Notes: generated by a model not told the origin, from the sequence alone. Positions 14,443-54,672 are shown, counted from the stretch's first letter. The stretch: 64,000 bases of DNA from Candidatus Latescibacterota bacterium (GCA_965222075.1 OZ244937.1:960001-1024000), one strand, 5' to 3'. Program-made: numbers and translations.

Positions 14443-14466
14443 AGGTCAGTTGTCGCAGGTAATGGC

Positions 14467-25432: not shown

Positions 25433-25524
25433 AAACCGATAGAGGATTGCGTGTGGGCGGATGATTTTACACGGCCCGGAGCATAAGAAAGGAGGTAGGG
25501 TGCATTCCTCTTGCACCCGTTCTT

Positions 25525-26235: not shown

Positions 26236-26268
26236 AAGCAACCCCGGATGGACAGGAGGCGCATGGCG

Positions 26269-29395: not shown

Positions 29396-29407
29396 CAGGA
29401 GGCGGAG

Positions 29408-30266: not shown

Positions 30267-30285
30267 ACTAAAGGAGGGTACGGGG

Positions 30286-30852
30286 ATGGAGACATTCGCA
30301 GCGGAATACATCGCCGAGAACCAGCGCCTTCTTGCATCGCTGGATCCTGCCGAGATCGCCGGGGTGATCGAGATTGTGCGGCAGGCCGGAGCATCGGGCA
30401 ACCGGATCTACGCAGTCGGCAACGGAGGAAGTGCGAGCACGGCGTCCCACTTTGTGAACGATATGGGCAAGGGGGCTTCGCTGGGTCGGGAAAGGCGGTT
30501 CAAGGTGATCCCGCTGACCGACAACGTGGCGTGGATGACGGCGCTGAGCAACGACCTCTGCTATGAGGATGTGTTTGTAGAACAGCTCCGGAACTTTGCG
30601 GAGCCGGGCGATGTGCTGATTGCCATCAGTGGGAGCGGGAACTCGGAGAACGTGCTCAAAGCGGTGCGCTACGCCAACCAGGTGGGGTGCCGTACGGTCG
30701 GGTTTGCCGGGTTTAAGGGCGGGAAGCTGAAGGACCTTGTCCAGCACTGCATTGTGGTGGATGCGGACCACATGGGACGGATTGAGGATATGCACATGAT
30801 GCTTCAGCATATGATCTGTTACTACTTTATGGATCGGGAACCGGCGACGTGA
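30286..30852 (+). CDS. SIS-domain sugar-phosphate isomerase (GmhA-like)
   Basis: GNGGSASTASHF, TALSND, ISGSGNSENV, IEDMH. Confidence 0.9.
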   Translation: METFAAEYIAENQRLLASLDPAEIAGVIEIVRQAGASGNRIYAVGNGGSASTASHFVNDMGKGASLGRERRFKVIPLTDNVAWMTALSNDLCYEDVFVEQLRNFAEPGDVLIAISGSGNSENVLKAVRYANQVGCRTVGFAGFKGGKLKDLVQHCIVVDADHMGRIEDMHMMLQHMICYYFMDREPAT

Positions 30853-39255: not shown

Positions 39256-39293
39256 GGGATTCTCCTGTGAACCGCAAAACTGCTGAGTATTTT

Positions 39294-40031
39294 TTACTGG
39301 AGGTAGAGACCCATCGCTTCGATGGCTTCTGCCACTTCTCTGAGCACCAGGTCCCGGGTCGGTTCTCCACGTCTTCGCCGCTGCCGGACCCGGGTCGAGG
39401 ACATCTGGATGTAGCGCTCGGCCAGCTGGATAAAGTCGACCCGATCGGTGAAGGGCCTGCATTCGGGGCGTTCCATCAGGGTGCGCATTTGCTCCAGGCC
39501 GTGGCACCCCCGGTTGGCGGCAACGATGCGGGAGGTTTCAAAGAAGGGGTGGAGGTCCTCCTGCATGTCGGCGTAGTATCTGGGGTCGAAGAGCCGCTGG
39601 AGGGTATCGTAGCCGACGATGAAGTAGAACCGGGTGCCGTGGGCATAGAGGGCGCGGAGGGCCTCGGCTTTGTCTATGAACCGGGCGTGACTGCATCCGG
39701 CCACCGAGATATCGGAACGGCCTTCGGCATAGGCAAGCAGCATGGCCAGCCGCTGGCCCAGGTCGGCGCCAAAGACCTTCTTGTCAACATTCGACCGCGA
39801 CAGCATCAGCAGCACCTCGTTCAGGCCGCAGGTCCGCCGGGCCTTTTCAACCATCCCGTGGTGGGCCAGCGTCATCGGGTTGAACGAGGCATCCAGCACG
39901 CCGAGACACCCTGCCGAGACGCCCATGCCTCCGGGTGCCCGCTGCACGATACGGACCCGGGGCGGCCCGGCCGGGTGCAGGTCGGCCATAATCCTGCGCA
40001 GGCGTTCCAGTTCTTCGGGGTCGGTCCGCAT
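39294..40031 (-). CDS. Nucleotidyltransferase, NMN adenylyltransferase (Pof1/NadD-like)
   Basis: LDASFNPMTLAH, SNVDK, FIDKAEAL, FIVGYDTLQRLFDPRYY, MSSTRVR. Confidence 0.8.
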   Translation of the reverse strand: MRTDPEELERLRRIMADLHPAGPPRVRIVQRAPGGMGVSAGCLGVLDASFNPMTLAHHGMVEKARRTCGLNEVLLMLSRSNVDKKVFGADLGQRLAMLLAYAEGRSDISVAGCSHARFIDKAEALRALYAHGTRFYFIVGYDTLQRLFDPRYYADMQEDLHPFFETSRIVAANRGCHGLEQMRTLMERPECRPFTDRVDFIQLAERYIQMSSTRVRQRRRRGEPTRDLVLREVAEAIEAMGLYLQ

Positions 40032-40159
40032 GTCTGTTTTCCTTATCGAGAAAAATCTACAGCATACGGATATGGTAGTTTCTGCCACACCGGAAGTCAA
40101 CCGAAATCTGAACGGTTTGAGGCGCTTTCAATCACGGGTGTTACGTCTGGAGGGAGATT

Positions 40160-41023
40160 ATGCATATCGGGATGCGGATTCCGCCTATGGTTCGGGATCT
40201 TGGCTTTGAAGGTGTGGTGGCGTGGGCGAGTGCCAACGGGTTTGGTTCTATCGATGTGCCCCAGGTGGACCGGAAGGTCCGAAAGATCTGCGACAGGGCC
40301 GGGTTGCGCATCGGCACGGTGGACTGGGGCGTTGGGGGGGCGCTGTTGAGCAGAGACGGCCGCGTGCGCCGGAAGGCGGTTGCGGCGATGAAACGGCGGA
40401 TCCAAGCGACGGCCGCGTGCGGCTCGGGGGTGATCTTTGTGTGCCTTGCGCCCGATGACAGTTTGCAGCCCCGGGCCGAGAGTTTTGAGATTTTTAAGCG
40501 GGTCTACCCCGGGATTGTGGACGCGGCGGAAAAGGAGGGCGTCCACTTAGCGATTGAACCCTATCCCGGTCCGGCGCCGGCCTATCCCAACCTGGGCTGC
40601 ACGCCGGAGACTCTCCGGGCCATTTTCGAGGCGATTCCGTCGCCCCACCTGGGGATCTGCTACGACCCCTCTCATTTTATCCGCATCGGGGTGGATTACA
40701 AGCGCCTCCTGGTGGAGTTCGGGGACCGGGTGCGTCACGTGCATGCCAAAGATACCGAGATCTTAGACGACGGGCTTTACGCGTTTGGCTGTCTGGGGCA
40801 GAGTTTTGGCCGCCGTTATCCCCACGGAGAGGGCTGGTGGCGCTATTGTATTCCGGGATGGGGGGCTGCGGACTGGAAGTGGGTGGTGGCCCGCTTAGAG
40901 GAGATTGGGTACGACGGCCCTCTGGCGGTCGAACTGGAGGACGACCGCTATATGGGAAGCACGGAACGGAACCAGGAGGGGCTTCTGGCCGCCAGGGCCT
41001 ACCTGAAGCAGATCATCCGATAG
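40160..41023 (+). CDS. Sugar phosphate isomerase/epimerase (xylose isomerase-like TIM barrel)
   Basis: LAIEP, YDPSHF, HVHAKD, IPGWG, YDGPLAVELED. Confidence 0.9.
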   Translation: MHIGMRIPPMVRDLGFEGVVAWASANGFGSIDVPQVDRKVRKICDRAGLRIGTVDWGVGGALLSRDGRVRRKAVAAMKRRIQATAACGSGVIFVCLAPDDSLQPRAESFEIFKRVYPGIVDAAEKEGVHLAIEPYPGPAPAYPNLGCTPETLRAIFEAIPSPHLGICYDPSHFIRIGVDYKRLLVEFGDRVRHVHAKDTEILDDGLYAFGCLGQSFGRRYPHGEGWWRYCIPGWGAADWKWVVARLEEIGYDGPLAVELEDDRYMGSTERNQEGLLAARAYLKQIIR

Positions 41024-41810
41024 CGTTTCTTCCGATGGTCAGGGCTTCCAGAAATGGGAACGCAATACACGCCCGCCGCATCTCGCGTTTGAGCCAGGTC
41101 TTGAAGAGCCGGTTTCTGATCTCCTGCTGCACGGCCCCGGTCAGGGTCGCGGGGTAGATGTGTTGCACAAGGTAGAGCGCGTAGCCTTTTTCGACCTTTA
41201 GCGGCCCTACCAGTTCCCCCGGCGCTGCCGCAAACACCAGCGGGGCGATGCCTTTGGGCAGGTGGCGGCGTCTGAGCCGTCCCAGGTAGCCTCCAGCGGG
41301 TCGGGTGGCTTCATCCTGAGAATGACGCCGCGCCAGATTGTGGAATGCGACACCTTCCTCGGTTATCTGTATCCGGAGTTCCTCTGCAATTCCCTCGTCT
41401 GCGACGTGTATCCAGTAGACTTCCGCCTCGTCGAAGTCCAGGGTATGCTGTGCAAAATAGGGTTCTATTCGACCTTCGGTTGCCTTTTGGGCCAGGGACG
41501 CCTCAAGCAAGCGGCATTCGACCTGTTGGGCCACGTCGTCCAGCGCCAACCCCCGATGCGCCAGCCAGGCCTCTGTTTCTTCCACGCGCTCCAGCCGGTT
41601 CTGGTAGCGCCACGCATCCACTTCCGTCTGCAGGTCCTCCGGGCCCACGCTCAGGCCTTCGCGCAGCGCCAATTGGAGGATGAGACGCTGCCGGGCGCAG
41701 CGGTGGAGAAGGCTCAGGTCGTCAGCAGCCTGCAGCGCACGCAGCAGGTCCGAGAGATGGACGTGCTCATCGTTGACAACGGCGAGCACCGGGTCTGTTC
41801 CCTCCAACAC
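41013..41810 (-). CDS. PpiC/SurA-like peptidyl-prolyl isomerase (T1SS/peptide-export associated)
   Basis: AFHNLARRHSQDEATRPAGGYLG..VFAAAPGELVGPLK; GTG start with GGAGG RBS right after the HlyD stop. Confidence 0.85.
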   Translation of the reverse strand: MLEGTDPVLAVVNDEHVHLSDLLRALQAADDLSLLHRCARQRLILQLALREGLSVGPEDLQTEVDAWRYQNRLERVEETEAWLAHRGLALDDVAQQVECRLLEASLAQKATEGRIEPYFAQHTLDFDEAEVYWIHVADEGIAEELRIQITEEGVAFHNLARRHSQDEATRPAGGYLGRLRRRHLPKGIAPLVFAAAPGELVGPLKVEKGYALYLVQHIYPATLTGAVQQEIRNRLFKTWLKREMRRACIAFPFLEALTIGRNAIG

Positions 41811-41811
41811 C

Positions 41812-43227
41812 TTATCCCTCCTCGTTTGATGCGAACGCCGCAGATTCACGCAGCTGCCGCAGCGGCTTCAGTAGCAGGTTGAGGATCGAAGTTCTGTCCG
41901 TTATGATCTCGGCGGTGCCCTTCAGGCCGTACATCAGCGGCTTTTCCTCTCCGCGCACCCGCACGGTTATCTCTTCCGGTTGCACGATGCACCGATAGAC
42001 CGGGCCGAGGGTCGGATCGACGGTTGCATCCGGCGATATCTGCGTTAGTCTCCCCAGCTTGATGCCATAGTCTTCAAAGGGGAAGGCTTCGTACTTCAGC
42101 TTGACGGCCTGCCCCGGCTTGATCATTCCCACGTCCTTGTTCAGGACCATCGCTTCGGCCACCGTGGGGGCGGAGGCCGGGGCCAGGGTGGCCAGGGCCT
42201 GTCCTTTGTCGGCCACCTGGCCCACGGTGTTCACGAGCACCCGGGTCACGATGCCGGCTTCCGGTGCCAGGATGAGGTCCGAGTCGGCCTCCAGGGCCCG
42301 GTCCACCGCCTGCTGCGCCCGTTCGTAGCGCAGCTTTGCCTCTTCGTAGGCGTGCACGGCCCGGACGGACTCCCGGTCGCGGTCGATCTGCGCCTGCAGG
42401 ATTTGTCGCTTCAGGTCCTGCACGGTTGTTTCCAGGCGATGGACCTCCGCCATCCGGGCAGGGAGAGCGGCCAGCGCCCCAAAGTAGCGCACCCGGGCCT
42501 CGTCTAAGGCCTTGTGGCTGATGAGGCGCTTCTTGTAGAGCTGCCGGCTCTCCATATACAGATGTTTGAGGTGTTCCAGTTCTGCGGATCGAAACCGGAT
42601 CTCCGCCTTCAGGTCCGCCTCAGGAGGGTTTGCATCCGGGGTGTGACCTTTCAGGTCCTCCTCTCTGAAGCTCTCTCGATAGGCCTGCAAGGCGTCCTGG
42701 TGGGTCTGCATCAGCGCTTGCATGAGGTCCAGCCTGGCTTTGAGCGCGGCAACGGTCTCCTGCGTGAGCCGCCGCTTTTGGGGCAGGGCTTCCCGAAGGT
42801 CGTAGTCCGCTTTCTGAAACTGCACTTTGGCCTGTTCCAGTTCCCGCAACTCCATCCAGGTTTCACGGGACCGGAGTTTGAAGAGAATTTGCCCTTTGCT
42901 CACCCTGTCCCCCTCCTTCACCCCGATGCCCTCAATCTCTCCACCCCGGGGCGCCTGGACAGTATTCACCCGGCCCCGGGGCATGAGGCGAAACGGCGCT
43001 GTGGCCACCACATCCACTTTCCCAAACCCCGCCCAGAGTAGCCCGGCCAGGACAAAGGCCAGCACAATATAGAGCAGCGTCCGGCTAAAGGCAGGGTGAA
43101 GAGACCCGAAGAACTCAGACACTTCCACCGCGTGTTCTACATTCCCCGAAACAGGGTGAACCCCGGCATCTGGAACACCGGGGGTTTTCTCCACCAATGC
43201 GGATGCTGTTAATACGGGTTCGGCCAT
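41812..43227 (-). CDS. hlyD: HlyD family membrane fusion protein
   Basis: TM helix, VKEGDRVSKGQIL lipoyl half, coiled coil, KLKYEAFPFEDYG, GLKGTAEIIT. Confidence 0.92.
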   Translation of the reverse strand: MAEPVLTASALVEKTPGVPDAGVHPVSGNVEHAVEVSEFFGSLHPAFSRTLLYIVLAFVLAGLLWAGFGKVDVVATAPFRLMPRGRVNTVQAPRGGEIEGIGVKEGDRVSKGQILFKLRSRETWMELRELEQAKVQFQKADYDLREALPQKRRLTQETVAALKARLDLMQALMQTHQDALQAYRESFREEDLKGHTPDANPPEADLKAEIRFRSAELEHLKHLYMESRQLYKKRLISHKALDEARVRYFGALAALPARMAEVHRLETTVQDLKRQILQAQIDRDRESVRAVHAYEEAKLRYERAQQAVDRALEADSDLILAPEAGIVTRVLVNTVGQVADKGQALATLAPASAPTVAEAMVLNKDVGMIKPGQAVKLKYEAFPFEDYGIKLGRLTQISPDATVDPTLGPVYRCIVQPEEITVRVRGEEKPLMYGLKGTAEIITDRTSILNLLLKPLRQLRESAAFASNEEG

Positions 43228-43263
43228 TTGACTTTTGTCGGCTTATTTGTCCCTCACGATTTT

Positions 43264-46200
43264 TTATGCCGCGTCCAGCTGCTGACCTGTCAGGTAGTAA
43301 TAAAGCCCTTGCTTCGCCACCAGGCCCTCATGATCCCCTGTCTCTACGATGTGTCCTTTGTCCAGCACCACGATCAGGTCCGCATTCCGTACGGTGCTCA
43401 ACCGGTGGGCGATGACGAACGCCGTGCGGTCTTTTAAGATGTCCTCCAGGTTCTCCTGGATGGCCTGCTCCGATTCCGTATCCAGGGCGTTGGTCGCTTC
43501 GTCGAAGATCAGGATCCGGGGATCGGTGTAGAGCGCCCGGGCGATGGCGACCCGTTGCCGCTGCCCGCCGGAGAGTCCCACACCCTGTTCTCCGACCCTG
43601 GTTTCGTAGCCCATGGGCAGGTCGGAGACAAAGCCGTGGGCGTTGGTCAGCCTGGCGGCCTCCACCACCCGGTCCATGTCGACCTCTTCCGCGCCCAACG
43701 CGATGTTTTCCGCGATGGACCCGCTGAAGAGGAACGGCTCTTGCAGGACCATCCCGACCTGGCGCCGCAGCCATGCCGGGTTAAAGTCGCGCAGGTCGAT
43801 CCCGTCGAGCGTCACCCGCCCTTCGGTGGGATCAAAAAGCCGGGGGATGAGTTTCACCAGCGTGGTCTTCCCTGCGCTGCTACGGCCTACGACGGCCACC
43901 TTCTGGCCGGGCTGAACGGTCAGGTCGATGTCGTTGAGGACATAGGGTTCCTCTGCACCGGCTCCGTAGCGAAAGAAGACCTTTTCAAACGCGATCCGAC
44001 CTTCCATCCGCTGGAGGGTTACCGCATAATTCCCATGCCGGGACGCCTCCATAGGGCTATCGTAGATGTCGTTGAGCCGGTCCAGCGCAATGCGCGCCTC
44101 CTGGATCTGTGGCCAGAGACCGATCAGGCCCATAATCGGTCCTGTTACGTTTCCGACGATCGCATTGAAGGCCATCAATTGTCCTACCGACAGTTCCCCG
44201 TCAATCACCAGGGTCGCTCCGTACCAGAGAATAAATGTGCTGCTGAAGAGGTTCAGCAGTCTGCCGATAGAGCCGAACAGCATCCCGATTTTCATTCGGT
44301 GAAATCCGATTTGAATCTCTTTGGTGTAGCGATCCTCCCATTTCCACCTCGTGCTCCGCTCTACAGCCGATGCCTTGACAGCGTCAACGCCATGCAGGGA
44401 GTCGATCAGCACAGACGACTGTTCAGCTTGCGCCAGGAAGGCGCGCTGGCCGAGCGACTTGAGGACCGGCGTGTAGATCAACGTCAGGATCACGGTAAGC
44501 GGCATAAATGCCAGCACAAAAAGGGTCAACTGTGCATGATAATAGAGCATCAGCCCCAGGTAGACGAAGAGCATGGTCACGTCGAGGACGACCGAGACCG
44601 TGGCGCCGGTCAACAGCGCTTGAATCGTGGCGTTTTCCCCGAATCGTGTTGTGAGATCACCTGTGCGACGCAGTGCGAAGAAACGCATCGATAGGCCCAG
44701 CAGGTGCCGGTAAAATCGGGAGAGCATGGTGATACTCAACCGGGCGCTGACGTAGGCGATCAGGTAGGTCCGCAGTGCGGAGGTGCCCATCTGGAAGAGG
44801 GCGATGACGATCATTCCGATCAGCATCAGGTTGAGCAGGTGCCGGTCCTGGTGGACCAGGACCTGGTCTACGATGGTCTGCGTAAAGATCGGCGAGGCGA
44901 GCCCGAACAGGCTCAGGACCAGGGACGCCAGGAGGATTTCGCAGAGGATGCCGGCGTAGGGCCGTACAAGGGGGAAGAACCTGCGGAAGGAGGGCAGGGA
45001 GGATTCGTTTTCGGCCACCCGGTCCGTGTACTCCAGAAGAAGCGCCATATGGGCCCAGCCAGCCTCGAACGCCTTTCTGGAGAGCTTCCGGATGCCGATT
45101 TCAGGGTCGGCGATCATCGCATACTTTGCGGTGATCTGAAAAAGGACGATAAAGTGGTTGCCCTCCCAGTGGATCACGGCGGGCAGGTCTGTGCGCAGCA
45201 GCTGCTCGTAGCCCGTCCGCACACCCCGCGTGACAAACCCCAGGCTCTCCGCAGCTTCGGCCAGCCCGGCTAAAGACGCCCCGTGGCGTGAGACGTTGGC
45301 CATGTCCCGCAGCCGGTTCAACCCGATGGGCATCCCGTAATACTTGCAGATCATCCCCAGACAGGCCGCCCCACAGTCGGTCTGGTCATGCTGCTTGAGA
45401 AATGGAAACCGGCGGATTTTTCGGGCCTTCCCGTTTTGGGACGAGGCCTCCGGCGTTACCGTATCCTTCGTTCGCTGCGTTTGGGGAGCAGTCGGTCCAT
45501 TCACCGGAATCGGCGCGGGTTCCGCAGATTCTTTCTGTCTGTGCTCCGAGACCGCCCCTTCAAGCGCCCGGCGCAAGGGGGGGATTCGACCCACAAAGCG
45601 GTCAAAGTCCACCTTCGACAGCGAATAGACTACAACATCGGTCACTGCGGTGATGGTGGCCGGCTGGGGTGTGTTCTCCAGCAGCGCCTGCACGCCAAAG
45701 AAATCCCCCTGCTTCAGTTCATATGCCGTTCGCTCCCGTCCGCAACCGTCCAGGCTTATGGCCCTCATGTGTCCACCGCCAATCAGGTAGAACCGTTCTC
45801 CTGCGTCTCCCTGGCGGGCCACACACGTTTCGGAGGATAGGGCCTCCCGTTTCAAGCTCCGGAACAGGTCCTGCATCGCTTCGCCGGATACCTGTCCGTT
45901 TCCCGCTTTGAGGAACCGCGTGAAGTCCCGGTATGCGATGTGAACGATCTGGTCTTCAAGATACGCTTTCAAGTCCGGGTTGGAGGAGACAACCTTCAAG
46001 AAATCGGCTCTGGAGACCCGCAGCACTCCTGAGGGCTCAACCGCGCGTACCGTGGCGCGACGTCCCAGGCCGGTCAATAGTGCGCCCTCTCCGAAGTGGT
46101 CGCCAGGGTAGAGGTAGCCCACCGTCTGGGGGCGTTCCTCATCATCCTTCCGGAGGACTCGCAAGCGGCCGGACCGGACGATGTAGAAGGCGTCGCCCGG

Positions 46201-46290
46201 ATCGCCTTCCTGGAAGATGGTGGCGCCCAGATTGAGGCGCAGAGAGTTTTCTTGGGAAGCGAATTTATCCGGTAGGATTGGATGGTTCAT
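43264..46290 (-). CDS. Peptidase-containing ABC transporter: 2x cNMP-binding + C39 peptidase + TMD + NBD
   Basis: Two cNMP domains (GDHFGEGALL..RRATV; GDFFGVQALL); QHDQTDCGAAC, HWEGNHF, IADP (C39 catalytic residues intact); GRSSAGKT, LSGGQRQR. Confidence 0.95.
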   Translation of the reverse strand: MNHPILPDKFASQENSLRLNLGATIFQEGDPGDAFYIVRSGRLRVLRKDDEERPQTVGYLYPGDHFGEGALLTGLGRRATVRAVEPSGVLRVSRADFLKVVSSNPDLKAYLEDQIVHIAYRDFTRFLKAGNGQVSGEAMQDLFRSLKREALSSETCVARQGDAGERFYLIGGGHMRAISLDGCGRERTAYELKQGDFFGVQALLENTPQPATITAVTDVVVYSLSKVDFDRFVGRIPPLRRALEGAVSEHRQKESAEPAPIPVNGPTAPQTQRTKDTVTPEASSQNGKARKIRRFPFLKQHDQTDCGAACLGMICKYYGMPIGLNRLRDMANVSRHGASLAGLAEAAESLGFVTRGVRTGYEQLLRTDLPAVIHWEGNHFIVLFQITAKYAMIADPEIGIRKLSRKAFEAGWAHMALLLEYTDRVAENESSLPSFRRFFPLVRPYAGILCEILLASLVLSLFGLASPIFTQTIVDQVLVHQDRHLLNLMLIGMIVIALFQMGTSALRTYLIAYVSARLSITMLSRFYRHLLGLSMRFFALRRTGDLTTRFGENATIQALLTGATVSVVLDVTMLFVYLGLMLYYHAQLTLFVLAFMPLTVILTLIYTPVLKSLGQRAFLAQAEQSSVLIDSLHGVDAVKASAVERSTRWKWEDRYTKEIQIGFHRMKIGMLFGSIGRLLNLFSSTFILWYGATLVIDGELSVGQLMAFNAIVGNVTGPIMGLIGLWPQIQEARIALDRLNDIYDSPMEASRHGNYAVTLQRMEGRIAFEKVFFRYGAGAEEPYVLNDIDLTVQPGQKVAVVGRSSAGKTTLVKLIPRLFDPTEGRVTLDGIDLRDFNPAWLRRQVGMVLQEPFLFSGSIAENIALGAEEVDMDRVVEAARLTNAHGFVSDLPMGYETRVGEQGVGLSGGQRQRVAIARALYTDPRILIFDEATNALDTESEQAIQENLEDILKDRTAFVIAHRLSTVRNADLIVVLDKGHIVETGDHEGLVAKQGLYYYLTGQQLDAA

Positions 46291-46586
46291 CCGGGTTTCT
46301 TAGCCTCAGCGTCATCTTTCTTCAGATTCTGTTACCGTGGAAACCTGCTGCTTTGGCATGAAACGAGAGCGATTACGGGCGATGTTGGAAGCTGCCGTGG
46401 AGCTACAGGATGCTTATTACACCTTCTGTTTGCTCCACGACAGCCTCAAGCAACAGATTCATCCCCTCTGGGCCAACAAAGGGCAACGGGTCGCCGAAAG
46501 AGTGGTCTCCACATACCCCGATGGCAGAAGGGATAACGGATCACGCCTGCCTGCCGAGTCCGGCGCAAGCAGGCAAAACGCTCTCC

Positions 46587-46847
46587 CTAACTGCGATATC
46601 CGGAGTAAACTTCATACATCTTTTGCCTCTTGTAAAATTCATCGACAAAAGTGTCTCCTGGTGGGGGGGTATATATAACATAGCTAGACACCAGGTATTT
46701 AGAGGGAATCTCCTTACCATTTCCTCCTTCTACGATCGCCATTTCATGCATGCTTAAGCTTTCTTCGCGTAGGGGTAGAGGTACACACTGTACGAAGAAT
46801 TGTCCTGGATCTGTTGTAATCCGGTTATTACGTACTTTGGCTACCAT
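46587..46847 (-). CDS. Putative double-glycine RiPP/bacteriocin precursor (42-aa leader + 44-aa core)
   Basis: AAGGAGGT RBS; leader ends EESLSMHEMAIVEGG; core NGKEIPSKYLVSSYVIYTPPPGDTFVDEFYKRQKMYEVYSGYRS; upstream of the C39 transporter. Confidence 0.75.
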   Translation of the reverse strand: MVAKVRNNRITTDPGQFFVQCVPLPLREESLSMHEMAIVEGGNGKEIPSKYLVSSYVIYTPPPGDTFVDEFYKRQKMYEVYSGYRS

Positions 46848-47072
46848 CGTTGTTACCTCCTTATTGAGACTCAGAGAATTCTGAGACATCCGGTTGTGAG
46901 CGGATACCTGTATCCTGACATTCCTCATCGCGAAGTTCGGATGTCAAGAGCGGTATTCAGAGTGGGGTAGTTATGCGTTACCTCTCTGTGTCAGACCATA
47001 AGCGACCTCCTCTGGAATCGGGTGATCGGTTCCGGGCAATATGCATGGACGGTGGGATAGAGCCGTCCCATC

Positions 47073-48470
47073 TCACGGGGACATCAGCATATCGCCCATC
47101 TGCCGGATCTTTCGGAGCGCCTGATGGCACGTCTCCCGGTCGCCGGCGATACCGAGCAGCGCGGCCTCCACCTCGTTCGGATGTAGCGCCTGGCTCAGGT
47201 AGAGGCCCAGGCCTTCCAAGAACGGAAGGTCCTGATGCAGGAAGGGGACCCTGGGGAGCGGGCCCTGCTGGCTGCCAAGATAGTTGTATGCCTTGCTATG
47301 TGCATGTCCTTTCAAGTTATAGCCCTGGACAAAGTGGACGGTGAGGGGTACAGGGCAGGTACCCCGCTCACGCTTCTGAAGGAGATCTTCGAAAAGCTCC
47401 ACGTGCTGTTTTGCAATCCGGTCCCACGAAAATCCTTCTGCTCGTTCCCTTGCCTGCCGGCCTGATTTTTCCCGTTCGGTTTTGCTGTCGATCAGGCTTC
47501 GTATTGTATCTGAAACTGCCTCTGGGGGGATGTAGCCGGACACGCTGAGCGGTTCGTCCTCAAATCGCGTGACCTCGACCATCCAGCCGCAGTTGGAAAG
47601 GAGTTCGGGCGCGCCGGCAAACCGGGTGGCCACAATTGGAAGGCCGCATGCCATTCCTTCCAGCACAACCGAAGGGCAGGATTCGTAGGAGTAGACCGAC
47701 AGGAAGCAGAGCACATCCAGCAGGTTGTAGTAAAGCGGCATCCGGTTGTAGGGCTGAGGTCCGAGAAAGATGACATTTGGTGGATGGGTAACGGGAACAA
47801 ACTGCTGGCCGACGACGGCGAACAGGACATCCGGGTTCAGATCGGCTATGCGAAGAAAGGGATACGCTCCCTTGCCCGGTTCGAATCGAGAACAAAATCC
47901 AACGACAGGCATCTCCAAAAATCGCTGATCACTGGTGGCCTCGGCGACCTCTTTGCGGGCAGCGAGCTTGTCGGTGGGCTTGAAGACCTCTGTGTCCACG
48001 CCGTTCGTGATGGGCCTCAGGTAAGACGGGTCGAAGGCGTAGGCCGCCAGTTCGCGGGCACACCAGGTCGATTTGGGTGAGAGCGCGTCGTAAGGCCGAA
48101 GCAGGGAATAGCAGTTCAAGACCTGGTTCAGGAACTCCCGGTTCTGCCCAAAACAGCAGGACAGACGGATGACGATTGGAGCGGGGCAGACATGGCGGAA
48201 GAAGGCCAGCTCATTAACGTTTGGCTCAAACATCAGCACCGCATCGAATTCCTGTCGCTCAAACCATTGAAGCGAAGCGTCGATGGTTTCGAACGCTTGC
48301 CGAACGCCATAGATGTTGTCCTGGTACTCCTCTGGCTCCTCCGATAGCAGGAAGACCTCGCAGTACTTAGACAGGGCTTGTACGTGATTGAACCCCGAAA
48401 TCGAAGCGCCACTCCCGGATTCGTATACGGCCGCTTCGGAAAGGTATGGATAAGGGATGAAAATCTTCAC
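47073..48470 (-). CDS. GT4 family glycosyltransferase with atypical N- and C-terminal regions
   Basis: ITNGVD..F, SRFEPGKG, YESCPSVVLEGMACGLPIVAT, FSWDRIA; GTG start with AAGGAG RBS. Confidence 0.88.
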   Translation of the reverse strand: MKIFIPYPYLSEAAVYESGSGASISGFNHVQALSKYCEVFLLSEEPEEYQDNIYGVRQAFETIDASLQWFERQEFDAVLMFEPNVNELAFFRHVCPAPIVIRLSCCFGQNREFLNQVLNCYSLLRPYDALSPKSTWCARELAAYAFDPSYLRPITNGVDTEVFKPTDKLAARKEVAEATSDQRFLEMPVVGFCSRFEPGKGAYPFLRIADLNPDVLFAVVGQQFVPVTHPPNVIFLGPQPYNRMPLYYNLLDVLCFLSVYSYESCPSVVLEGMACGLPIVATRFAGAPELLSNCGWMVEVTRFEDEPLSVSGYIPPEAVSDTIRSLIDSKTEREKSGRQARERAEGFSWDRIAKQHVELFEDLLQKRERGTCPVPLTVHFVQGYNLKGHAHSKAYNYLGSQQGPLPRVPFLHQDLPFLEGLGLYLSQALHPNEVEAALLGIAGDRETCHQALRKIRQMGDMLMSP

Positions 48471-48519
48471 AGAATTCTCCTTGTATTTTGCCTTTCTCTG
48501 CGTCCTCTGCGGTGTTCTT

Positions 48520-51078
48520 TTAGAGATTTTCGATAAACGCACGCGTCTGTTCAGCACCGTCCAGCGCCAGGGTATGCCTCGGTAGGGGATGAGACAGCCC
48601 ACGCACAATGGCATCGGCGATCCGATCAGGCGTCAGAACGTCGGGATGGATCACCTCCGCCAGTCCCAGATCAGCCAGCTTGCGCGCCCGGATATCCTGA
48701 TCCTCTGAAAGCTTGCTTGGCACGAACAGAGTCCGGACACACGTCTCCAGGGTGTTCATACAGGTGTTGTATCCGGACCGGCTGATCGAGAGGTCGGCGA
48801 CACGCATCCACTGGAGAAAATTGGGCGCGAACCGCTCAAGGCGAAACGGACCGTCTCCACACATCTGTTTAAGGGCTTTGAAATGCGTCTCCTCTACAAA
48901 GAGGCCTGAGAAAATGACCATTGTCCGGTTCTCAATCGCTCCCTGTTCATCAAGGCGTTTCCAGGCCTCAATACAGGGAGCGGCAAGCGTGTGACCATCA
49001 ACGCCACCGCCTGCGCTGACCAGCACAAATCCGTTTCTGTTTTGGGGATTTTCTCCCAACAGGTTTCGATGCTCCAGCGCACCGTTCGGTTTTTCAGATA
49101 CATATCCTGTGTAGATAACCGGGATGGCGATATCCTCCACCCAGGGGAAGTGCTCTTCCAGCCGGCTCACACGCGGGTCTCCGTGAATGAGCAGGGCGTC
49201 GAAGCAGGCGTTTAACGTGGGACAGACCTCTTCGTAATACCTGCGTGCAATTCGGGTATTCTCGTGGACTTTACCTCCAAAAGGAACCGAGTAGAACCGC
49301 AGCCGGTCCCCGGATGGATGGCAGGCTGGAACCGGAAATATATCGAGGGCAGCCGTTTTGGCCTGAAGGGGGATGTCACGCAGAGAACAGATTACCCTGA
49401 CGTCCGGGTTGACCGATCCGGCTGCTTGAATCGCCGGGAGCAGCTCCGGCCGCAAGAGCCACCGCTGGAAGGGAAACAGTTCAACGATGAAGACGTCCGG
49501 TCGCAGGTGTGAAACGGTCTCTCGCAGGATGCGTTGACGCTCCTCCAGTACCTCTTCGATGTTCCGGTTGGGATTTTCAGAGGCCAATCCCTGTGGTGTC
49601 AGATGAATGGGCGTCAGATGAATGGGCCTCACGGAGTCTGGCACTTCGGCGCCTGGAATTGGACGGCCGCCGTCCACGAAGTGGACCTCGTGGTCCCGTG
49701 ATAGCACCCGGACGATCTGGAGATTTCGGAAGTGATGGCCCACGCCGACAAGGTGCTGGCTGTAGAAGAGGATGCGCTTTCTGCGGGGTTTCGAAGCGGC
49801 GCCGGACAGCCCGGGCCGGTGTTCACGGAGCGCCCGCTCGTAAATCACGCCGTATCTCGCCACGACCTTCCGCCATGCCCGGTGTTCCAGCACCCAGAGC
49901 CTTGCACGGTGCCCCAGTGCTGCGCGGAGCCGCGCATCCTGGATGAGGGTCGAACACTTCCGGGCGAGGTCATCCGGGTCGTCGGCGGTACAGATAAGGC
50001 CGGTCTTGCCGTCGTCCACGATCTCACGGAGTGCGTTCACATCGCTGACAATGAGGGCTTTTTCCATGCACATTGCTTCATACGGCTTTAGCGGGGTCAC
50101 CAGATCCGTGACTTTGCTCTTGATTCTGGGGATGACAAATAGATCGAGGAGGGCATAATAATCCAGAATGTCCCGATGGGGTACCCGGCCGGTAAAGTGA
50201 ATGGCGTTTCTTAGATTCAGCTTTCTTGCCAGGGCCTGGAGGGGGCCAAGTTCGTCGCCTTCACCCACAATCACAATCCTGACGCGCAGGTTGTTTTCCA
50301 GCAGGATTTTTCCGGCTTTGAGCAACCCATGAATGCCCTCGAGCTTTCTCAGGCAACCGATGTAGCCGATGACGACTTCCTCTGGAAGAATGCTTAGCTT
50401 CTCACTCAGGTGTGTCGGGCGTTCCCGGGGCTGAAATTGTGAGGGATCGACCCCATTGGGGACAATAGAAATTTTCTCTCCGGGGATGCCTTTCCGCACG
50501 AACTCGGCCTTCATTGTCCTGGAAAGGGTCACCACGCGGTCTGCGCGTTCCATTGCATTTACAAACTCCTGGCACTGCCTCTGATAGGCTTCTGAAGCAG
50601 GATCGGTTGTGCCATTCGCGACTGCGCTGTCGTGCCGCAGACCCCTCACTTCGTAGATCACCGGCAGACCGCACCGGCGCCCCAGATCGATCGCTGTCAA
50701 GGCGTTCCGTGCGGGGGATGCGACGTGGACCAAATCAGGTTTTTGGGTCTGGATAGCGCGGGAAATATGGTTTCGAAATTGGCGCTCCAGGCCGTACCGA
50801 AACAGGCGGTCAAAATCGGGAGGTCGGCCTGCGCCGAGACGTTGTAAGACGTTGTGATTACACGCTTGAGCGGTATCTCTCAGATACAAAACGCCGTCCA
50901 GGTACTCCTCTTCAACAGGATATGCTCCGTTTGCCGAAGGGGGTGAATGCCTTGTCGCCACGACCGGTTCAAACCCCAGTGCTTTCTGGAGGTCGACGAT
51001 ATACTTGCTGCGGATGGTGTAACCGGCCTGCCAGTGCGGCAGTGACCGATTCAGGATGTGTAGGATTTTCAGGGCCAT
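48520..51078 (-). CDS. Double glycosyltransferase fusion: GT4 domain + COG4671/GT28-like GT-B domain
   Basis: N: HILNRSLP..GYTIRS, YEVRG, VPNGVD, VTPLKPYEAM; C: YSQHLVGVGH, VELFPF, SLRDI, HGDP, YTGYV, VSAGGG, SRSGYNT. Confidence 0.88.
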   Translation of the reverse strand: MALKILHILNRSLPHWQAGYTIRSKYIVDLQKALGFEPVVATRHSPPSANGAYPVEEEYLDGVLYLRDTAQACNHNVLQRLGAGRPPDFDRLFRYGLERQFRNHISRAIQTQKPDLVHVASPARNALTAIDLGRRCGLPVIYEVRGLRHDSAVANGTTDPASEAYQRQCQEFVNAMERADRVVTLSRTMKAEFVRKGIPGEKISIVPNGVDPSQFQPRERPTHLSEKLSILPEEVVIGYIGCLRKLEGIHGLLKAGKILLENNLRVRIVIVGEGDELGPLQALARKLNLRNAIHFTGRVPHRDILDYYALLDLFVIPRIKSKVTDLVTPLKPYEAMCMEKALIVSDVNALREIVDDGKTGLICTADDPDDLARKCSTLIQDARLRAALGHRARLWVLEHRAWRKVVARYGVIYERALREHRPGLSGAASKPRRKRILFYSQHLVGVGHHFRNLQIVRVLSRDHEVHFVDGGRPIPGAEVPDSVRPIHLTPIHLTPQGLASENPNRNIEEVLEERQRILRETVSHLRPDVFIVELFPFQRWLLRPELLPAIQAAGSVNPDVRVICSLRDIPLQAKTAALDIFPVPACHPSGDRLRFYSVPFGGKVHENTRIARRYYEEVCPTLNACFDALLIHGDPRVSRLEEHFPWVEDIAIPVIYTGYVSEKPNGALEHRNLLGENPQNRNGFVLVSAGGGVDGHTLAAPCIEAWKRLDEQGAIENRTMVIFSGLFVEETHFKALKQMCGDGPFRLERFAPNFLQWMRVADLSISRSGYNTCMNTLETCVRTLFVPSKLSEDQDIRARKLADLGLAEVIHPDVLTPDRIADAIVRGLSHPLPRHTLALDGAEQTRAFIENL

Positions 51079-51299
51079 GAGAGGGGTTCACCTCGGAGAA
51101 TTTCTCCTTTTCCCTGCATTTGTATTTCTCCGCGCCTTCCGCGCCTCTGCGGTGCGGTTACCGGGGCAGGTTTCGCAAACCCTGTGCCACCCCTTCCTGG
51201 GAGAGCATAACAATAATATTTTCAAAATCTTCGAGAGAATTTTTGAGAAAATTTCAGAAGGAAAAGGTGAAAAAGGTTTTCAAAATGGCTCTCCGGATC

Positions 51300-51315
51300 T
51301 GAAAGATCCATGCCA
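51300..51315 (-). promoter_or_regulatory. Possible sigma-54 (-24/-12) promoter for the GT-peptide-exporter operon
   Basis: TGGCATG-GATC-TTTCA versus consensus TGGCACG-N4-TTGCW (the -12 G is mismatched). Confidence 0.35.
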
Positions 51316-51404
51316 ATAGGGCCCGGAAATCGTCTGTCTGTACTTTTTTCAAACGCATATCCTGACGGGTATATCCCTCAACACTTAAGCTGCAGACTGG
51401 GAAT

Positions 51405-51440
51405 AGAAAGAGGCCCTGACCGTTTTGTGGTCAGGGCCTC
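51405..51440 (-). terminator. Rho-independent terminator after the sigma-54 activator
   Basis: 12-bp stem gaggccctgacc/ggtcagggcctc followed by TTTCT on the minus strand. Confidence 0.6.
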
Positions 51441-51481
51441 CTGACGTCTTGCGTCGGGGCGGAGTGAGATGTATAGCCGAA

Positions 51482-52477
51482 TCAATCCCCACCCCGGTAC
51501 CGATCTGCCCGAAATCCGTGCTCGGCCATTCGTACCTGGAAGTACTGCCGTCCGATACCGCTCTCCCGGGCGGCCTGAGAGACGTTGCCCCCGGTGCGCA
51601 GCAGGGCACGGTGAAGGTATTCCCGGGTGAAGCGGTCCAGGCTGAGGCGCCGGGCTTCCTTATAGGAAAGTTCATAGAGATCTGCCTCGGACGTGCCTGA
51701 GGCCTGGATGTGAGGCGGCAGGTCGCCGGGGTAGACCTGTTCTCCCTCGGCCAGGAGGAGCGCCCGGGAGATGACATGGGTCAGTTCTCGGACGTTGCCC
51801 GGCCAGTCGTAGCCCTCCAGCAGCATCCGGACCTCCGGAGAGAGGGGGCGTATTCTCAGTCCATTCTCCTGGGATTTCGCCACAAAATGCTCGATCAGGA
51901 GGGGTATATCGCTTCGACGATCCCGAAGAGGGGGCAGATGGAGGTGGATGACATCGAGGCGGTAAAAGAGATCCTCACGGAATCGGCCCTCCAGAACCTG
52001 TTGTTTCAGGTCCCGGTGGGTGGCTGTGACTAAGCGCACGTCGGCCCGGTGGATTCGGCTGTCGCCTACCGGACGGAACTCGCCTTCCTGGAGGAGCCGG
52101 AGCAGGTGGGGCTGCAGGTCCCCGGGCAGGTCGCCCACTTCGTCTAAGAAGAGGGTGCCGCCTCTGGCCTCTTTCACCAGTCCGCACCGGTTTTCGAAGG
52201 CGCCGGTAAAAGATCCCCGGAGATGGCCGAAGAGTTCGCTTCGGGCTACGTCCCGGGACAGAACGCCGCAGTCCACGACCACAAAGGGTCCATCGGAGCG
52301 GGGACTTTGGGCGTGAATGGCGCGTGCGAGTAATTCCTTTCCGGTGCCGGTTTCCCCGGTGATCAGCACCGGCAGGTGGCAGCGGGCGGCACGGTGGGCC
52401 AGGTTCTGGACTTCCAGAACGGTGGGATGGCGACCGACAGTGGGGCTGTTGCGGGTGGTGCATGCAAAAGGGGACAT
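51482..52477 (-). CDS. Sigma-54-dependent activator (AAA+ and HTH) lacking a sensor domain
   Basis: GETGTGKE, SELFGH..GSFTGA, LFLDEVG, FREDLFYRL, WPGNVREL, GGNVSQAA. Confidence 0.92.
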   Translation of the reverse strand: MSPFACTTRNSPTVGRHPTVLEVQNLAHRAARCHLPVLITGETGTGKELLARAIHAQSPRSDGPFVVVDCGVLSRDVARSELFGHLRGSFTGAFENRCGLVKEARGGTLFLDEVGDLPGDLQPHLLRLLQEGEFRPVGDSRIHRADVRLVTATHRDLKQQVLEGRFREDLFYRLDVIHLHLPPLRDRRSDIPLLIEHFVAKSQENGLRIRPLSPEVRMLLEGYDWPGNVRELTHVISRALLLAEGEQVYPGDLPPHIQASGTSEADLYELSYKEARRLSLDRFTREYLHRALLRTGGNVSQAARESGIGRQYFQVRMAEHGFRADRYRGGD

Positions 52478-52509
52478 TGCGCTCCCTCCCAAAAGTGTAA
52501 GAATCTCGC

Positions 52510-52760
52510 TTGTAATCAGGTCCAGTCCTTGGGCCTCTAACAGCGTACGGATGAACGGTGACCCACGCACCAGCCGCTCCCCCGGCCAGCGCAGCAGGAA
52601 CTCGATGCCTGCGCGGTTGATGAACGGGACGCCTTTCAGCTCCGGTACCAGGCGCTACGCCTCCCGGAGCGAGTGGGTGAATGCCTGCTCCAGTCCTCTT
52701 CAGACATCCAGTTTAGCAGAATCTTCTCCGAAGTCTGCGATATGACTGTGAGCCGTACCG
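52510..52760 (-). pseudogene. STAS-domain (anti-sigma antagonist-like) remnant
   Basis: Manual translation ..LVPELKGVPFINRAGIEFLLRWPGERLVRGSPFIRTLLEAQGL; upstream part frameshifted. Confidence 0.45.
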
Positions 52761-52794
52761 TCTGATTGCTCTCCGGATTACACACTATCTGCAA

Positions 52795-52810
52795 ACCAAA
52801 TCCTGTGCCA
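52795..52810 (-). promoter_or_regulatory. Possible sigma-54 promoter
   Basis: TGGCACA-GGAT-TTGGT. Confidence 0.35.
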
Positions 52811-53006
52811 AAAAAATAGCCGCCCAAAGCGTGTCGCTTCAAGTGGCTGTTTATAATAGGGGTTGTGGGATGACTGTACAAGGTTAGCCGGACAGGATGC
52901 TAACTGGTGCAGGGACAGTATCTGGTCCCACCAATTGTGCTAATTTCTTTTATTCTGTTTATAAACATATAGATTGTAAGAACAAACATGGGTCCCATAT
53001 ATGGTC

Positions 53007-54359
53007 TCAGGGCGCTATATGTGGGACCTGCGGCCGCTGGATGTCCAGCTTCTTCATGCGGTGGCTCAATGTAGACGGATGCATGCCCAGCAAGGCAGCC
53101 GCTCCGTGCGGCCCCTTGATGACCCATCCGGCCTGTTCCACGACCTTCCGTATGTGCTGTTTTTCGAGTTCTTTCAGGGTCAGGATCTCCTCAGAGGATT
53201 CACCATCCGGCCGACCGGATTCCAGGGCAATATCCTTAGGCTGGATCGCCTGCCTCCGGCACATGATCACGGCACGCTGTACCGCATGCTCCAGTTCCCG
53301 GATGTTGCCCGGCCAGTCGTAGGTCCTCAGCACGGCCAGCGCCTCCGGAGTCAGCTGGGGTACTGCTTTGTTTAGATAGGACGCCATCCGCTCCACAAAA
53401 CAGGCGGCCAGAAGCGGGATGTCCTCCCGGCGCTCGCGCAGGGGCGGCAGTCTCACGGGAAACACTTGCAGGCGAAAGTAGAGATCCTCCCGGAACTGCC
53501 CGTTGGCCACCATCTCCTGCAAATTCCGGTTGGTAGCTGCAATCACCCGCATATCGGCCACCAGCGTCTCGGTGCCGCCCACCCGCTCGAAGGCGCGTTC
53601 CTCCAAGAGGCGCAGCAGCTTCACCTGCGCTTCCAGGGCCAGGTCCCCGATTTCATCTAAGAAGAGCGTGCCGCCCGCCGCCAGTTCCACCTTGCCCAGC
53701 TTGCGGGAGACCGCTCCGGTGAAGGCCCCCCGCTCGTGCCCGAACAGTTCGCTTTCGACCAGGCCTTCGGGGAGGGCGCCGCAGTTGACCTGGATGAAGG
53801 GGCGATCTCTGCGCGGGCTCAGCCGGTGCACGGCCCGGGTAGCCACCCCTTTGCCGGTACCGGTCTCGCCTGAGATCAATACGGTCAGGTCGGTTTTGGC
53901 CACCTCTGCAAGCTGCGCCTGGACCTCGCGGAGGGCCTGGCTATCCCCCACGAACTCGCCTTTGGTCCCACTCTGGCTCAGCACCTCGGCCAAGACCTGG
54001 ATGTGAGGGTCGGGCACCACGTTCAGTGTGACAGAAGCTGGCTCGGAGTAATTCAGGTCCTGGTCCACGGCCTGGACTTCGAACGTGAAGGTTTCCCTCG
54101 GCAGGTCCTGGTATTCCACACGTCGAGCGTTTGTGGTCTGCCAGTCTTCATCGTAGCCTTTCAGCCGATACCGGTAGACCAGCCCTTCCGGACGCGTTTT
54201 GAAGCTGATGCCGTGAAATTCAAAAACAATGAGTCCCACACTGGTGGAGATGGTCAGATCATCTTCCCTCTCATAGGCACAAAATAGCGCGAAGTTTTGA
54301 CTACCCGACAGGTCTCGAAAGCGGTATAATCCTGCTTCGAGCAGGACGAACGTTTCCAT
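53007..54359 (-). CDS. Sigma-54-dependent activator with Y_Y_Y domain (sensor propeller apparently lost)
   Basis: YRYRLKGYDEDW..VEYQDLP..FTFEVQAVD; GETGTGKG, GAFTGA, WPGNIREL, GAAALLG HTH. Confidence 0.9.
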   Translation of the reverse strand: METFVLLEAGLYRFRDLSGSQNFALFCAYEREDDLTISTSVGLIVFEFHGISFKTRPEGLVYRYRLKGYDEDWQTTNARRVEYQDLPRETFTFEVQAVDQDLNYSEPASVTLNVVPDPHIQVLAEVLSQSGTKGEFVGDSQALREVQAQLAEVAKTDLTVLISGETGTGKGVATRAVHRLSPRRDRPFIQVNCGALPEGLVESELFGHERGAFTGAVSRKLGKVELAAGGTLFLDEIGDLALEAQVKLLRLLEERAFERVGGTETLVADMRVIAATNRNLQEMVANGQFREDLYFRLQVFPVRLPPLRERREDIPLLAACFVERMASYLNKAVPQLTPEALAVLRTYDWPGNIRELEHAVQRAVIMCRRQAIQPKDIALESGRPDGESSEEILTLKELEKQHIRKVVEQAGWVIKGPHGAAALLGMHPSTLSHRMKKLDIQRPQVPHIAP

Positions 54360-54424
54360 GATTATCCTCCTCTTTGATGGTTGCCAATTTGAAGGATAAT
54401 CTAAGGTGTCTTGCTCATTTCTTA

Positions 54425-54505
54425 CCTGCCTGCCGAGCAAGGCACCTGTCTGCCGCCTGCCTCGCCTGCTTCAGCAGACAGGGACAGGCAGGCGGCGCAG
54501 GCAGG
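54425..54505. repeat. Cluster of nested CCTG...CAGG elements
   Basis: cctgcctgcc..cctgtctgcc gcctgcc..gcagacagg gacaggcagg..gcaggcagg. Confidence 0.65.
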
Positions 54506-54553
54506 TAGCTGTTTCTCAACCCGTTGCAGGCCGGGACAGGTTTATGAGATAAG

Positions 54554-54651
54554 TTCTAACAAACTACTACAGGCGACAGACGACAGCGTACGCTCTTAGA
54601 CTCTTTGAGAATTTCTCACTTGTCGCCCACACTTGAGCGCAATCGTTAGGA
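54554..54651 (+). repeat. attC-like site
   Basis: TTCTAAC-aaacta-CTACAGGCGACA...TGTCGCC..CTTGAG-cgcaatc-GTTAGGA. Confidence 0.65.
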
Positions 54652-54672
54652 GTAAACGTATTTTTGGCAGTT

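Follow-up and report, generated by a model that had tools for sequence, protein, structure and literature searches.

We analysed a 64,000-nucleotide stretch of Candidatus Latescibacterota DNA (OZ244937.1:960001-1024000, hereafter the window) and describe a minus-strand gene run at 41013–51189 in which glycosyltransferase (GT) genes are joined to the genes for a small peptide and its exporter. The run consists of a sigma-54 promoter, a fusion GT, a second GT of family GT4 (GT4b), a peptide precursor, a peptidase-containing ABC transporter (PCAT), an HlyD-family protein and a PpiC-like protein. It is read as a sigma-54-driven operon that makes and exports a small ribosomal peptide, the promoter being assigned by its consensus and the neighbouring activator genes. 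From the comparison of sequences, we lean slightly towards the view that the precursor is glycosylated in the cytoplasm by the GT-B enzymes before it is cleaved and exported by the PCAT. A wider proposal, of which we are not quite half convinced, is that these loci form a new class of secreted glycopeptides. In this tentative class, a GT1-like/GT4 pair would be guided by an Arg-x-Thr-Ser stretch and would modify a hydrophobic-Ser-Glu sequon, possibly also Cys(+1), in many unrelated cores, with cleavage and export by a PCAT carrying cyclic nucleotide monophosphate (cNMP)-binding domains. We propose it because of what resembles a natural experiment, in which a sister genus that would have lost the GTs replaced the Ser by Ala. 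The class would be the sequon-directed, GT-B-based counterpart of the glycocins made by GT2 enzymes.

The linkage of the GTs to the peptide system was conserved in related genomes. A search with the GT4b alignment, using one genome per species, gave 30 loci with full-length matches of at least 65% identity; the next best matches had at most 36% identity and covered only parts of the query. The loci came from Latescibacterota or Latescibacteria (29/30) and from an entry named only "bacterium" (1/30). A PCAT was located downstream of GT4b in 28/30 loci, the exceptions being L026, where the contig ends early, and L028, where GT4b stands alone. The GT1/GT28-like domain was upstream of GT4b in 28/30 loci, and HlyD followed by the PpiC-like gene was present wherever the DNA reached. 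This arrangement exceeds chance. The GT genes are placed between promoter and precursors, because the sigma-54 site lies 5′ of the GTs in the window and in 15/26 evaluable GT-linked loci, and 5′ of the precursors in the GT-less genus g2. In several genomes the entire module was present in two to four separate copies, each accompanied by GTs of its own. GT4b occurred in 25/168 genomes of the phylum and in 4/49 genera, namely g1 (the genus of the window), g6 (21/21), g11 and g4 (a remnant). The preliminary description of the window, which was made from the sequence alone, had assigned the GTs to the peptide/PCAT module, and this assignment is upheld by the co-occurrence, by the position of the GT genes and by the Ser, Cys and Arg residues that track them.

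The GT architecture varied among the 31 loci, the window included. The GT4::GT1-like fusion was present in 15 loci, one of which (L051) has it as two overlapping pieces. In 13/31 loci the GT1-like protein of about 420 aa stands alone, and three of these have a different GT4 between it and GT4b. The rest comprise two loci cut by contig ends and one with neither architecture. The constant pair is taken to be the GT1-like domain and GT4b, with the extra GT4 optional, because those 13 loci lack the N-terminal GT4. The three GT activities described earlier are therefore present as domains in the window, but they are not a constant feature of the system.

A leader profile built from the leader of the window found precursors in 30/31 GT loci, with 1–6 per locus and 61 distinct cores. 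In the related loci and in the window, they lie on the operon strand immediately 3′ of GT4b. The GT-linked leaders form one family with invariant Arg (column 4), Leu (column 19) and Gly (column 36). The cores vary greatly, being acidic and Trp-rich, Gly/Ala-rich, or equipped with Cys-rich tails. CPBP-like membrane proteins are encoded between precursors and PCAT in most related loci; the window has none.

Genus g2 has the same peptide system without GTs. The PpiC-like protein was present in 33/41 related genomes, including 15/15 of g2, and the 16 g2 loci from these 15 genomes all had PCAT, HlyD and PpiC. No GTs were found in the 16 g2 loci, and GT4b was found in 0/15 g2 genomes. Precursors of the same leader family were present in 15/16 g2 loci (47 distinct cores), with a perfect sigma-54 site upstream of the first precursor gene in 14/15 loci. 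The PCAT tree (FastTree, 45 PCATs) showed the g2 clade (14 rows) as sister to the main GT-linked g6 clade (21 rows) with a joint support of 100. Other GT-linked rows were outside this joint clade, and the GT label needs at least three changes on the tree.

Specific residues of the precursors tracked the presence of the GTs. The motif [IV]-S-[DE] was found in 38/61 GT-linked cores versus 4/47 GT-less cores, whereas [IVL]-A-[DE] was found in 14/61 versus 30/47. Cys at +1 was present in 18/61 GT-linked and 0/47 GT-less cores. In MAFFT alignments of four orthologous families, the Ser column contained Ser in all GT-linked peptides (14/14, 13/13, 3/3 and 3/3; 33/33 together) and in none of the GT-less ones (0/18, 0/14, 0/6 and 0/6; 0/44 together), which had Ala (14) or other residues (30) instead. 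In the first of these precursor families, Cys(+1) was present in 14/14 GT-linked versus 0/18 GT-less peptides. The leaders differed as well: Arg at column 4 was found in 62/62 GT-linked versus 24/47 GT-less leaders, Ser/Thr at column 6 in 66% versus 2%, and Ser/Thr at column 7 in 98% versus 70%. Such contrasts are expected if the GTs read the leader and put a sugar on the Ser, perhaps also on Cys(+1).

A GtrA-like gene and a gene for a 731-aa membrane protein, named DUF2723-like from its sequence, were observed in L106 (15730–18251), in 10 further g2 loci and in L028 (genome G023). The pair was considered as a replacement glycosylation route in g2 and rejected. It is treated as a plain chromosomal neighbour, given its divergent orientation and its presence beside the isolated GT4b of L028 as well. 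That it borders both g2 modules and the GT4b standing alone in G023 points to a possible common site on the chromosome.

A decayed module was observed in genus g4 (L104, G004:C1:5516000-5535900), at 10454–14695. An IS110-like transposase lies between its PCAT and precursor, and GT4b is reduced to a 78-aa C-terminal remnant beside IS3-type orfA/orfB. By eye, the L104 core reads Asp-Tyr-Val-Val-Lys where the GT-linked cores of another family read Asp-Tyr-Val/Ile-Ser-Asp.

The precursor open reading frame (ORF) of the window (46587–46847) encodes 86 aa and has AAGGAGG 6 nt before its ATG. Its leader ends with LSMHEMAIVEGG. Neither the precursor nor the leader matched Pfam or NCBIfam models, and the precursor is single-copy in its genome (1 match, 5.36-Mb contig). 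Double-glycine leaders follow the pattern Leu(-12), Glu(-8), hydrophobic(-7), hydrophobic(-4) and then Gly-Gly. In the columns of the leader hidden Markov model (HMM), which covers 109 peptides, the retained residues are Leu (-12), Met or Ile (-7) and Gly (-2), and the family is classed as having double-glycine leaders. R9, L24 and G41 of the leader are invariant in alignment A4. The peptide had been described as free of Cys, which is correct for the 44-aa core and incorrect for the leader, which has one Cys.

Compared with a congeneric genome (G001), the leader was 95% identical, the flanking proteins 90–93% and the whole peptide 51%. The ratio of nonsynonymous to synonymous substitutions (dN/dS) of the leader was 0.07. 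The G001 precursor (L025, 7320–7697) is extended immediately behind Gly-Gly by a tandem insertion of about 40 residues, rich in Gly, Lys and Thr. In sequencing run X13, contigs of a related strain with about 94–95% identity span 41278–50543 and are broken exactly at the core and the downstream spacer (46466–46723), which fits fast divergence of the core.

All three GT domains of the window are GT-B according to Pfam and PDB matches, and a GT2 domain is absent, as expected from the earlier statement that the enzymes are not of the SunS type. The fusion protein has 852 aa (48520–51078), with Pfam GT4 domains at residues 24–394 and Glyco_tran_28_C (PF04101) at residues 739–832. Its GT4 half scored 110.9 bits with Glycos_transf_1 (cut-off 26.4), and its second half scored 47.5 bits with PF04101 (cut-off 22). 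The AlphaFold2 model of the GT1-like domain had a pLDDT (predicted local distance difference test score) of 75. The best Foldseek matches of this model in the PDB were a designed GT, CalG1, OleD/OleI, a kitacinnamycin GT, plant UDP-glycosyltransferases and MurG (E 1e-15 to 1e-13, TM about 0.5). As modelled, the domain shares its fold class, a two-Rossmann GT1-like fold, with secondary-metabolite tailoring enzymes. The family is large, with 1128 proteins at E ≤ 1e-5 among 8000 scored, and those of its members that have a name are entered only as "glycosyltransferase" or "hypothetical".

GT4b scored 56.5 bits with Glycos_transf_1 (cut-off 26.4). Its E263 and E271 are invariant among 13 orthologues (alignment A1), and we take them to be the Glu-x7-Glu motif of GT4 glycosyltransferases. 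GT4b is taken as 465 aa, because the orthologues start at the position of the GTG at 48470. Its C-terminal extension of about 100 aa is conserved among the orthologues. The tail of GT4b, the tail remnant in G004 and the N-domain of the GT1-like protein gave no usable Pfam match even at E up to 10. The AlphaFold2 model of GT4b, built with the 13 orthologues, had a pLDDT of 41, which is too poor to read the tail; it shows strands and then three helices. About 40 GT4b-like representatives were found at E ≤ 1e-30 in a library clustered at 50%, many of which match through the tail, and a Pfam scan of 10 distant ones gave GT4 domains only. A complex prediction of GT4b (A3) with the precursor (A4), run without controls, scored 0.17 against a mark of 0.32 and speaks neither for nor against binding.

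No hydrophobic segments were found in either GT protein or in the PpiC-like protein. The GTs are therefore placed in the same compartment as the precursor, the cytoplasm. Against G001, dN/dS was 0.30 and 0.32 in the GT genes, 0.27 in the PCAT gene and 0.29 in that of the PpiC-like protein; these values are rough, because dS is only about 0.11–0.15. Constraint on the GT genes is moderate and of the same degree as on the PCAT.

In genome G039, two paralogues of the GT1-like protein were observed outside PCAT modules, in L128 (G039:C1:837000-855000) and L127 (G039:C1:3912000-3930000). They have 376–377 aa and are 51–56% identical over two aligned stretches. In both loci, the paralogue lies beside a Peptidase_S8::DUF1611 (subtilase) fusion and a protein of about 340 aa of no assigned family. 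L128 additionally has an AhpC/TSA redoxin, MauE/DoxX, Yip1, HlyD, MacB-type and other ABC exporters, and an S41 peptidase. These loci may be a second GT-bearing module for peptide maturation and export.

We suggest the following course for the pathway. Sigma-54-dependent transcription would yield the GTs, precursor and exporter as a single unit. The soluble GT-B enzymes, that is, the GT1/GT28-like domain, GT4b and here the extra fused GT4, would act on the precursor in the cytoplasm, probably recognising the leader by its N-terminal Arg-hydrophobic-Thr-Ser/Thr stretch. For most members of the family, the core would receive the sugar on the Ser of its hydrophobic-Ser-Glu motif, and perhaps also on Cys(+1). 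The PCAT would then cut after Gly-Gly and, together with HlyD and an outer-membrane partner whose gene lies elsewhere, export the product; the PpiC-like protein may handle Pro-rich cores. The product may be a bacteriocin or a signal.

Several points weigh against glycosylation of the precursor. Sugars or lipid-linked molecules are the usual acceptors of GT4 and GT28/MurG-like enzymes. The N-terminal GT4 of the fusion is nearest to the exopolysaccharide-type family TIGR04063 (PEP-CTERM/XrtA-system glycosyltransferase; 314.1 bits with residues 4–417, below the cut-off of 442), and a third, distant G039 paralogue of the GT1-like protein (396 aa, 37–39% identical) is in a polysaccharide locus (L129). 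No recognition element for peptides synthesized on ribosomes and modified after translation (RiPPs) or other peptide-binding domain was identified in the Pfam scan or the GT4b tail model. The motif [IV]-S-[DE] is missing in 23/61 GT-linked cores. The residue contrasts are confounded by descent, because the GT-less peptides are all from g2 and the GT-linked ones nearly all from g6; they count at best as four family-level events and may reflect lineage. The PCAT tree is a midpoint-rooted FastTree and allows either loss or gain of the GTs. Moreover, the peptide of the window reads Val-Asp-Glu-Phe at the Ser column and that of G001 reads Tyr-Ala-Glu (alignment A4). Several GT-linked Gly/Ala-rich cores have Trp-Asp-Glu-Phe at seemingly the same motif, judged by eye. 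Because of the Val-Asp-Glu-Phe, the acceptor candidates in the window would be the Ser, Thr or Tyr of IPSKYLVSSYVIYT or the Thr-Thr of the leader. An oligosaccharide in O-linkage to Ser, Thr or Tyr of this peptide had been suggested; both the oligosaccharide and the linkage are conjectural, and the peptide is without the GT-correlated Ser.

The usual acceptors of these enzyme families, the relation to TIGR04063, the paralogue in L129, the tail in which no peptide-binding domain was detected and the missing Ser in the window would also be explained if the GTs were co-regulated with the peptide system and acted on a non-peptide acceptor, for example a glycolipid or envelope glycan for self-protection or release. 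We regard this as unlikely, though a serious contender. It leaves unexplained why the Ser, Cys(+1) and the leader Arg/Thr track the GTs, and why every duplicated module has its own GT pair. It also fits poorly with GTs without a membrane segment and with a GT1-like domain whose structural neighbours are mainly secondary-metabolite tailoring enzymes. The GTs might instead glycosylate the leader, at Thr-Ser/Thr, or another protein of the system as an export licence or timer and leave the core unmodified. The leader contrasts at columns 6 and 7 and an Arg at column 4 that is invariant only with GTs agree with this, and so does the window, where the leader has Arg-Ile-Thr-Thr and the core has no Ser motif. 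However, Ser/Thr at column 7 is frequent in GT-less leaders too, the contrasts at the core Ser and Cys(+1) would need a separate explanation, and we know of no case of leader glycosylation; we consider this explanation improbable. It is barely credible that the GT genes are mere neighbours without a functional tie to the peptide system. The module of g2 works with PCAT, HlyD and PpiC and without GTs, and G004 retains only its short GT4b remnant beside transposases, as mere neighbours might. Against this stand the synteny in 28/30 loci and the paralogous copies, the position of the GTs between promoter and precursors, a dN/dS resembling that of the PCAT, and the correlated precursor residues.

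Few glycosylated ribosomal peptides are known to us, and to our knowledge those with a double-glycine leader all use one GT2 family and come from Firmicutes. The system of the window resembles the glycocin pathway, yet it is without two features that define glycocins, namely a GT2 enzyme and a core with a disulfide hairpin. As described in the cited parts of the glycocin reports on sublancin/SunS, glycocin F and thurandacin (PMC12457901, PMC12139839, PMC12455637), the shared traits are a GG-type leader, cytoplasmic glycosylation of Ser/Cys and export by a C39 ABC transporter. Here, Ser and Cys are likewise the residues whose occurrence follows that of the GTs, in this case known from sequence correlation. 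By the same accounts, glycocins are made by GT2 enzymes of GT-A fold and have Cys-rich disulfide-hairpin cores in Firmicutes, whereas the enzymes here are GT-B (GT4 and GT1/GT28-like), and the core of the window has no Cys and belongs to a candidate phylum of Gram-negative type. The two-cNMP transporter, HlyD, the PpiC-like protein and the sigma-54 promoter also set the system apart from glycocins.

The exporter is closer to the HetC-type cNMP-PCATs, which share the domain order cNMP-C39-membrane-ATPase and the HlyD partner in the account of PMC10986499. HetC, as presented there, has a single cNMP domain, and no gene for a substrate is known in its vicinity; the PCAT of the window has two such domains and an adjacent precursor. 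The likeness extends to the occurrence of the core module without GTs in g2. Unlike the HetC/TIGR04500 systems, the loci described here interpose two or three GT-B activities between promoter and precursors.

Peptide natural products are also tailored by GT1-family enzymes, as with the vancomycin Gtf enzymes and in glycosylated thiopeptides, lasso peptides and cacaoidin (PMC10832541, PMC11912497, PMC8068269). The common ground is an inverting GT-B enzyme of the CalG1/OleD fold whose gene belongs to a peptide cluster. Those enzymes act on matured macrocycles of Actinobacteria, and their clusters contain different core enzymes and lack both a C39 transporter and a GG leader. Unlike such clusters, the operon described here has no further modifying enzyme.

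GtfA/GtfB are GT4 O-glycosyltransferases that place a sugar on Ser/Thr of serine-rich repeat adhesins in the cytoplasm before export. Here, too, a GT4 would act on a polypeptide before export, and the G001 precursor has a Thr/Gly/Lys-rich repeat. The substrates of GtfA/GtfB are large adhesins exported by the accessory Sec system, whereas small leader peptides are present here, and no sequence relation beyond GT4 was seen.

A full-text literature search, supplements excluded, found no description of GT-B enzymes combined with double-glycine precursors and a PCAT; supplements may list such loci as "RiPP-like". The same gene combination was not described in the consulted parts of PMC8939145 or of two papers on Latescibacterota or sponges, PMC12993501 and bioRxiv 10.1101/2024.01.09.574914. 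If the cytoplasmic glycosylation of the precursor is correct, the operon would represent a GT-B route to glycosylated peptides with double-glycine leaders and would provide a candidate short sequon applicable to diverse cores. It would also offer a promiscuous multi-precursor set (1–6 per locus, 61 GT-linked cores in 30 loci) and would link the glycosylation of peptides with sigma-54 and with export that senses nucleotides, in a phylum that is uncultured. If the glycosylation reading fails, the loci would still be a clear example of a peptide export operon that has taken up GTs to serve a different end, for instance self-protection. With the comparative evidence, what began as a guess has become a hypothesis open to sharp tests.

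The features of the operon and its regulators are listed in Table 1. The ORF, Pfam and NCBIfam analyses agreed with the preliminary description on six minus-strand genes and their positions.

Table 1. Annotated features of the peptide operon and of the adjacent regulator genes in the window
Feature	Position	Strand	Evidence or remark
Second sigma-54 activator, N-terminal Y_Y_Y domain	53007..54440	-	Pfam; syntenic in G001
Sigma-54 activator, AAA+ and HTH_8, without receiver domain	51482..52570	-	Sigma54_activat 211 bits
Sigma-54 type promoter, TGGCAC-N5-TTGC	51175..51189	-	Sole zero-mismatch match in 64 kb
N-terminal GT4 domain of the fusion (about residues 1-420)	49819..51078	-	Glyco_transf_4, Glycos_transf_1
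C-terminal GT1/GT28-like GT-B domain of the fusion (residues 426-852)	48520..49803	-	Glyco_tran_28_C
GT4b, second GT4	47073..48470	-	Glycos_transf_1; ORF open to 48614
Precursor leader, 42 aa, ends Gly-Gly	46722..46847	-	Leader HMM E 3.6e-17
Core peptide, 44 aa, and stop codon	46587..46721	-	Translation; Cys-free, Tyr-rich, PPP
PCAT, 1008 aa, two N-terminal cNMP-binding domains	43264..46290	-	Pfam cNMP_binding x2, Peptidase_C39, ABC_membrane, ABC_tran
HlyD-family periplasmic adaptor	41812..43227	-	TIGR01843 219.5 bits (cut-off 208.65)
PpiC-type rotamase-like protein, soluble	41013..41849	-	Rotamase 43.6 bits (cut-off 21.7)

The promoter, TGGCACAGGGTTTGC, has the -24 GG and -12 GC elements and is located about 97 nt 5′ of the fusion GT gene. 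An identical site was found in G001, 100 nt upstream of the first GT gene. A sigma-54 site with at most one mismatch was present 70–100 nt upstream of the first GT gene in 15/26 evaluable GT-linked loci; the background for such sites was 92 matches in 557,756 nt. The first activator gene (51482–52570) lies directly upstream of the operon and is 96% identical and syntenic in G001. A further site with one mismatch is located between the two activator genes (52796–52810). The sigma-54 control put forward earlier is consistent with the promoter consensus and the neighbouring activators, and it has no support beyond these. A DDE transposase gene (54673–55998, minus strand) lies immediately past both activators, at the edge of the module.

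Short contigs from two runs of one study, filed as sponge metatranscriptomes, matched 46468–46655, 46770–46998, 46950–47172, 45144–45301 and 50568–50785 with 0–1 differences. They had a depth of 2–3 and may derive from DNA carry-over, and they are not counted as proof of transcription; the stretches that they leave uncovered are given no weight either. The stretch of the window was also present in runs from several host-labelled and sponge-metagenome sequencing studies.

The Peptidase_C39 domain of the PCAT scored 127 bits. Its triad is intact, with the Cys of TDCGAACL, the His of NHF and the Asp of ADP aligned to those of PCAT1 (4ry2). This alignment and the Pfam matches bear out the earlier account, in which the PCAT has an intact C39 site and a pair of cNMP domains. 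The hydrophobic segments of the PCAT lie within residues 441–696, and HlyD has a single N-terminal membrane segment at residues 43–75. The gating by cAMP or cGMP proposed at first is an assumption; for HetC, a cyanobacterial PCAT, in vitro binding of ppGpp by the cNMP domain is reported in the cited part of PMC10986499.

The best NCBIfam match of the PpiC-like protein was TIGR04500, a "putative peptide maturation system protein", with 97.4 bits against a cut-off of 180 and coverage of profile positions 89–335 of 340. The protein is related to TIGR04500 and is not a member by the NCBI threshold. PPIase-like proteins of the TIGR04500 type are listed among the genes associated with graspetide loci in the portion of PMC8939145 that was consulted. 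No lanthipeptide, YcaO or radical SAM domains were found among the 12 proteins scanned at 37564–55998, in accordance with the earlier statement that such enzymes are lacking.

Other genes of the window were also noted. A block at 23280–31922 (plus strand) is GC-rich (0.60–0.66) and contains genes of sugar-acid type metabolism, with no link seen to the module. Its genes encode a GFO/IDH/MocA oxidoreductase, an oligogalacturonate-lyase-like protein, an SDR protein, a 2-hydroxyacid dehydrogenase, a GT4, an enolase-superfamily protein, a TIM-barrel isomerase and a SIS protein. Two eukaryote-like proteins are encoded on the minus strand: an 860-aa protein (58403–60985) with metallopeptidase-like motifs, WD40 repeats and bacterial Ig-like domains, and a 420-aa serpin (62074–63336).

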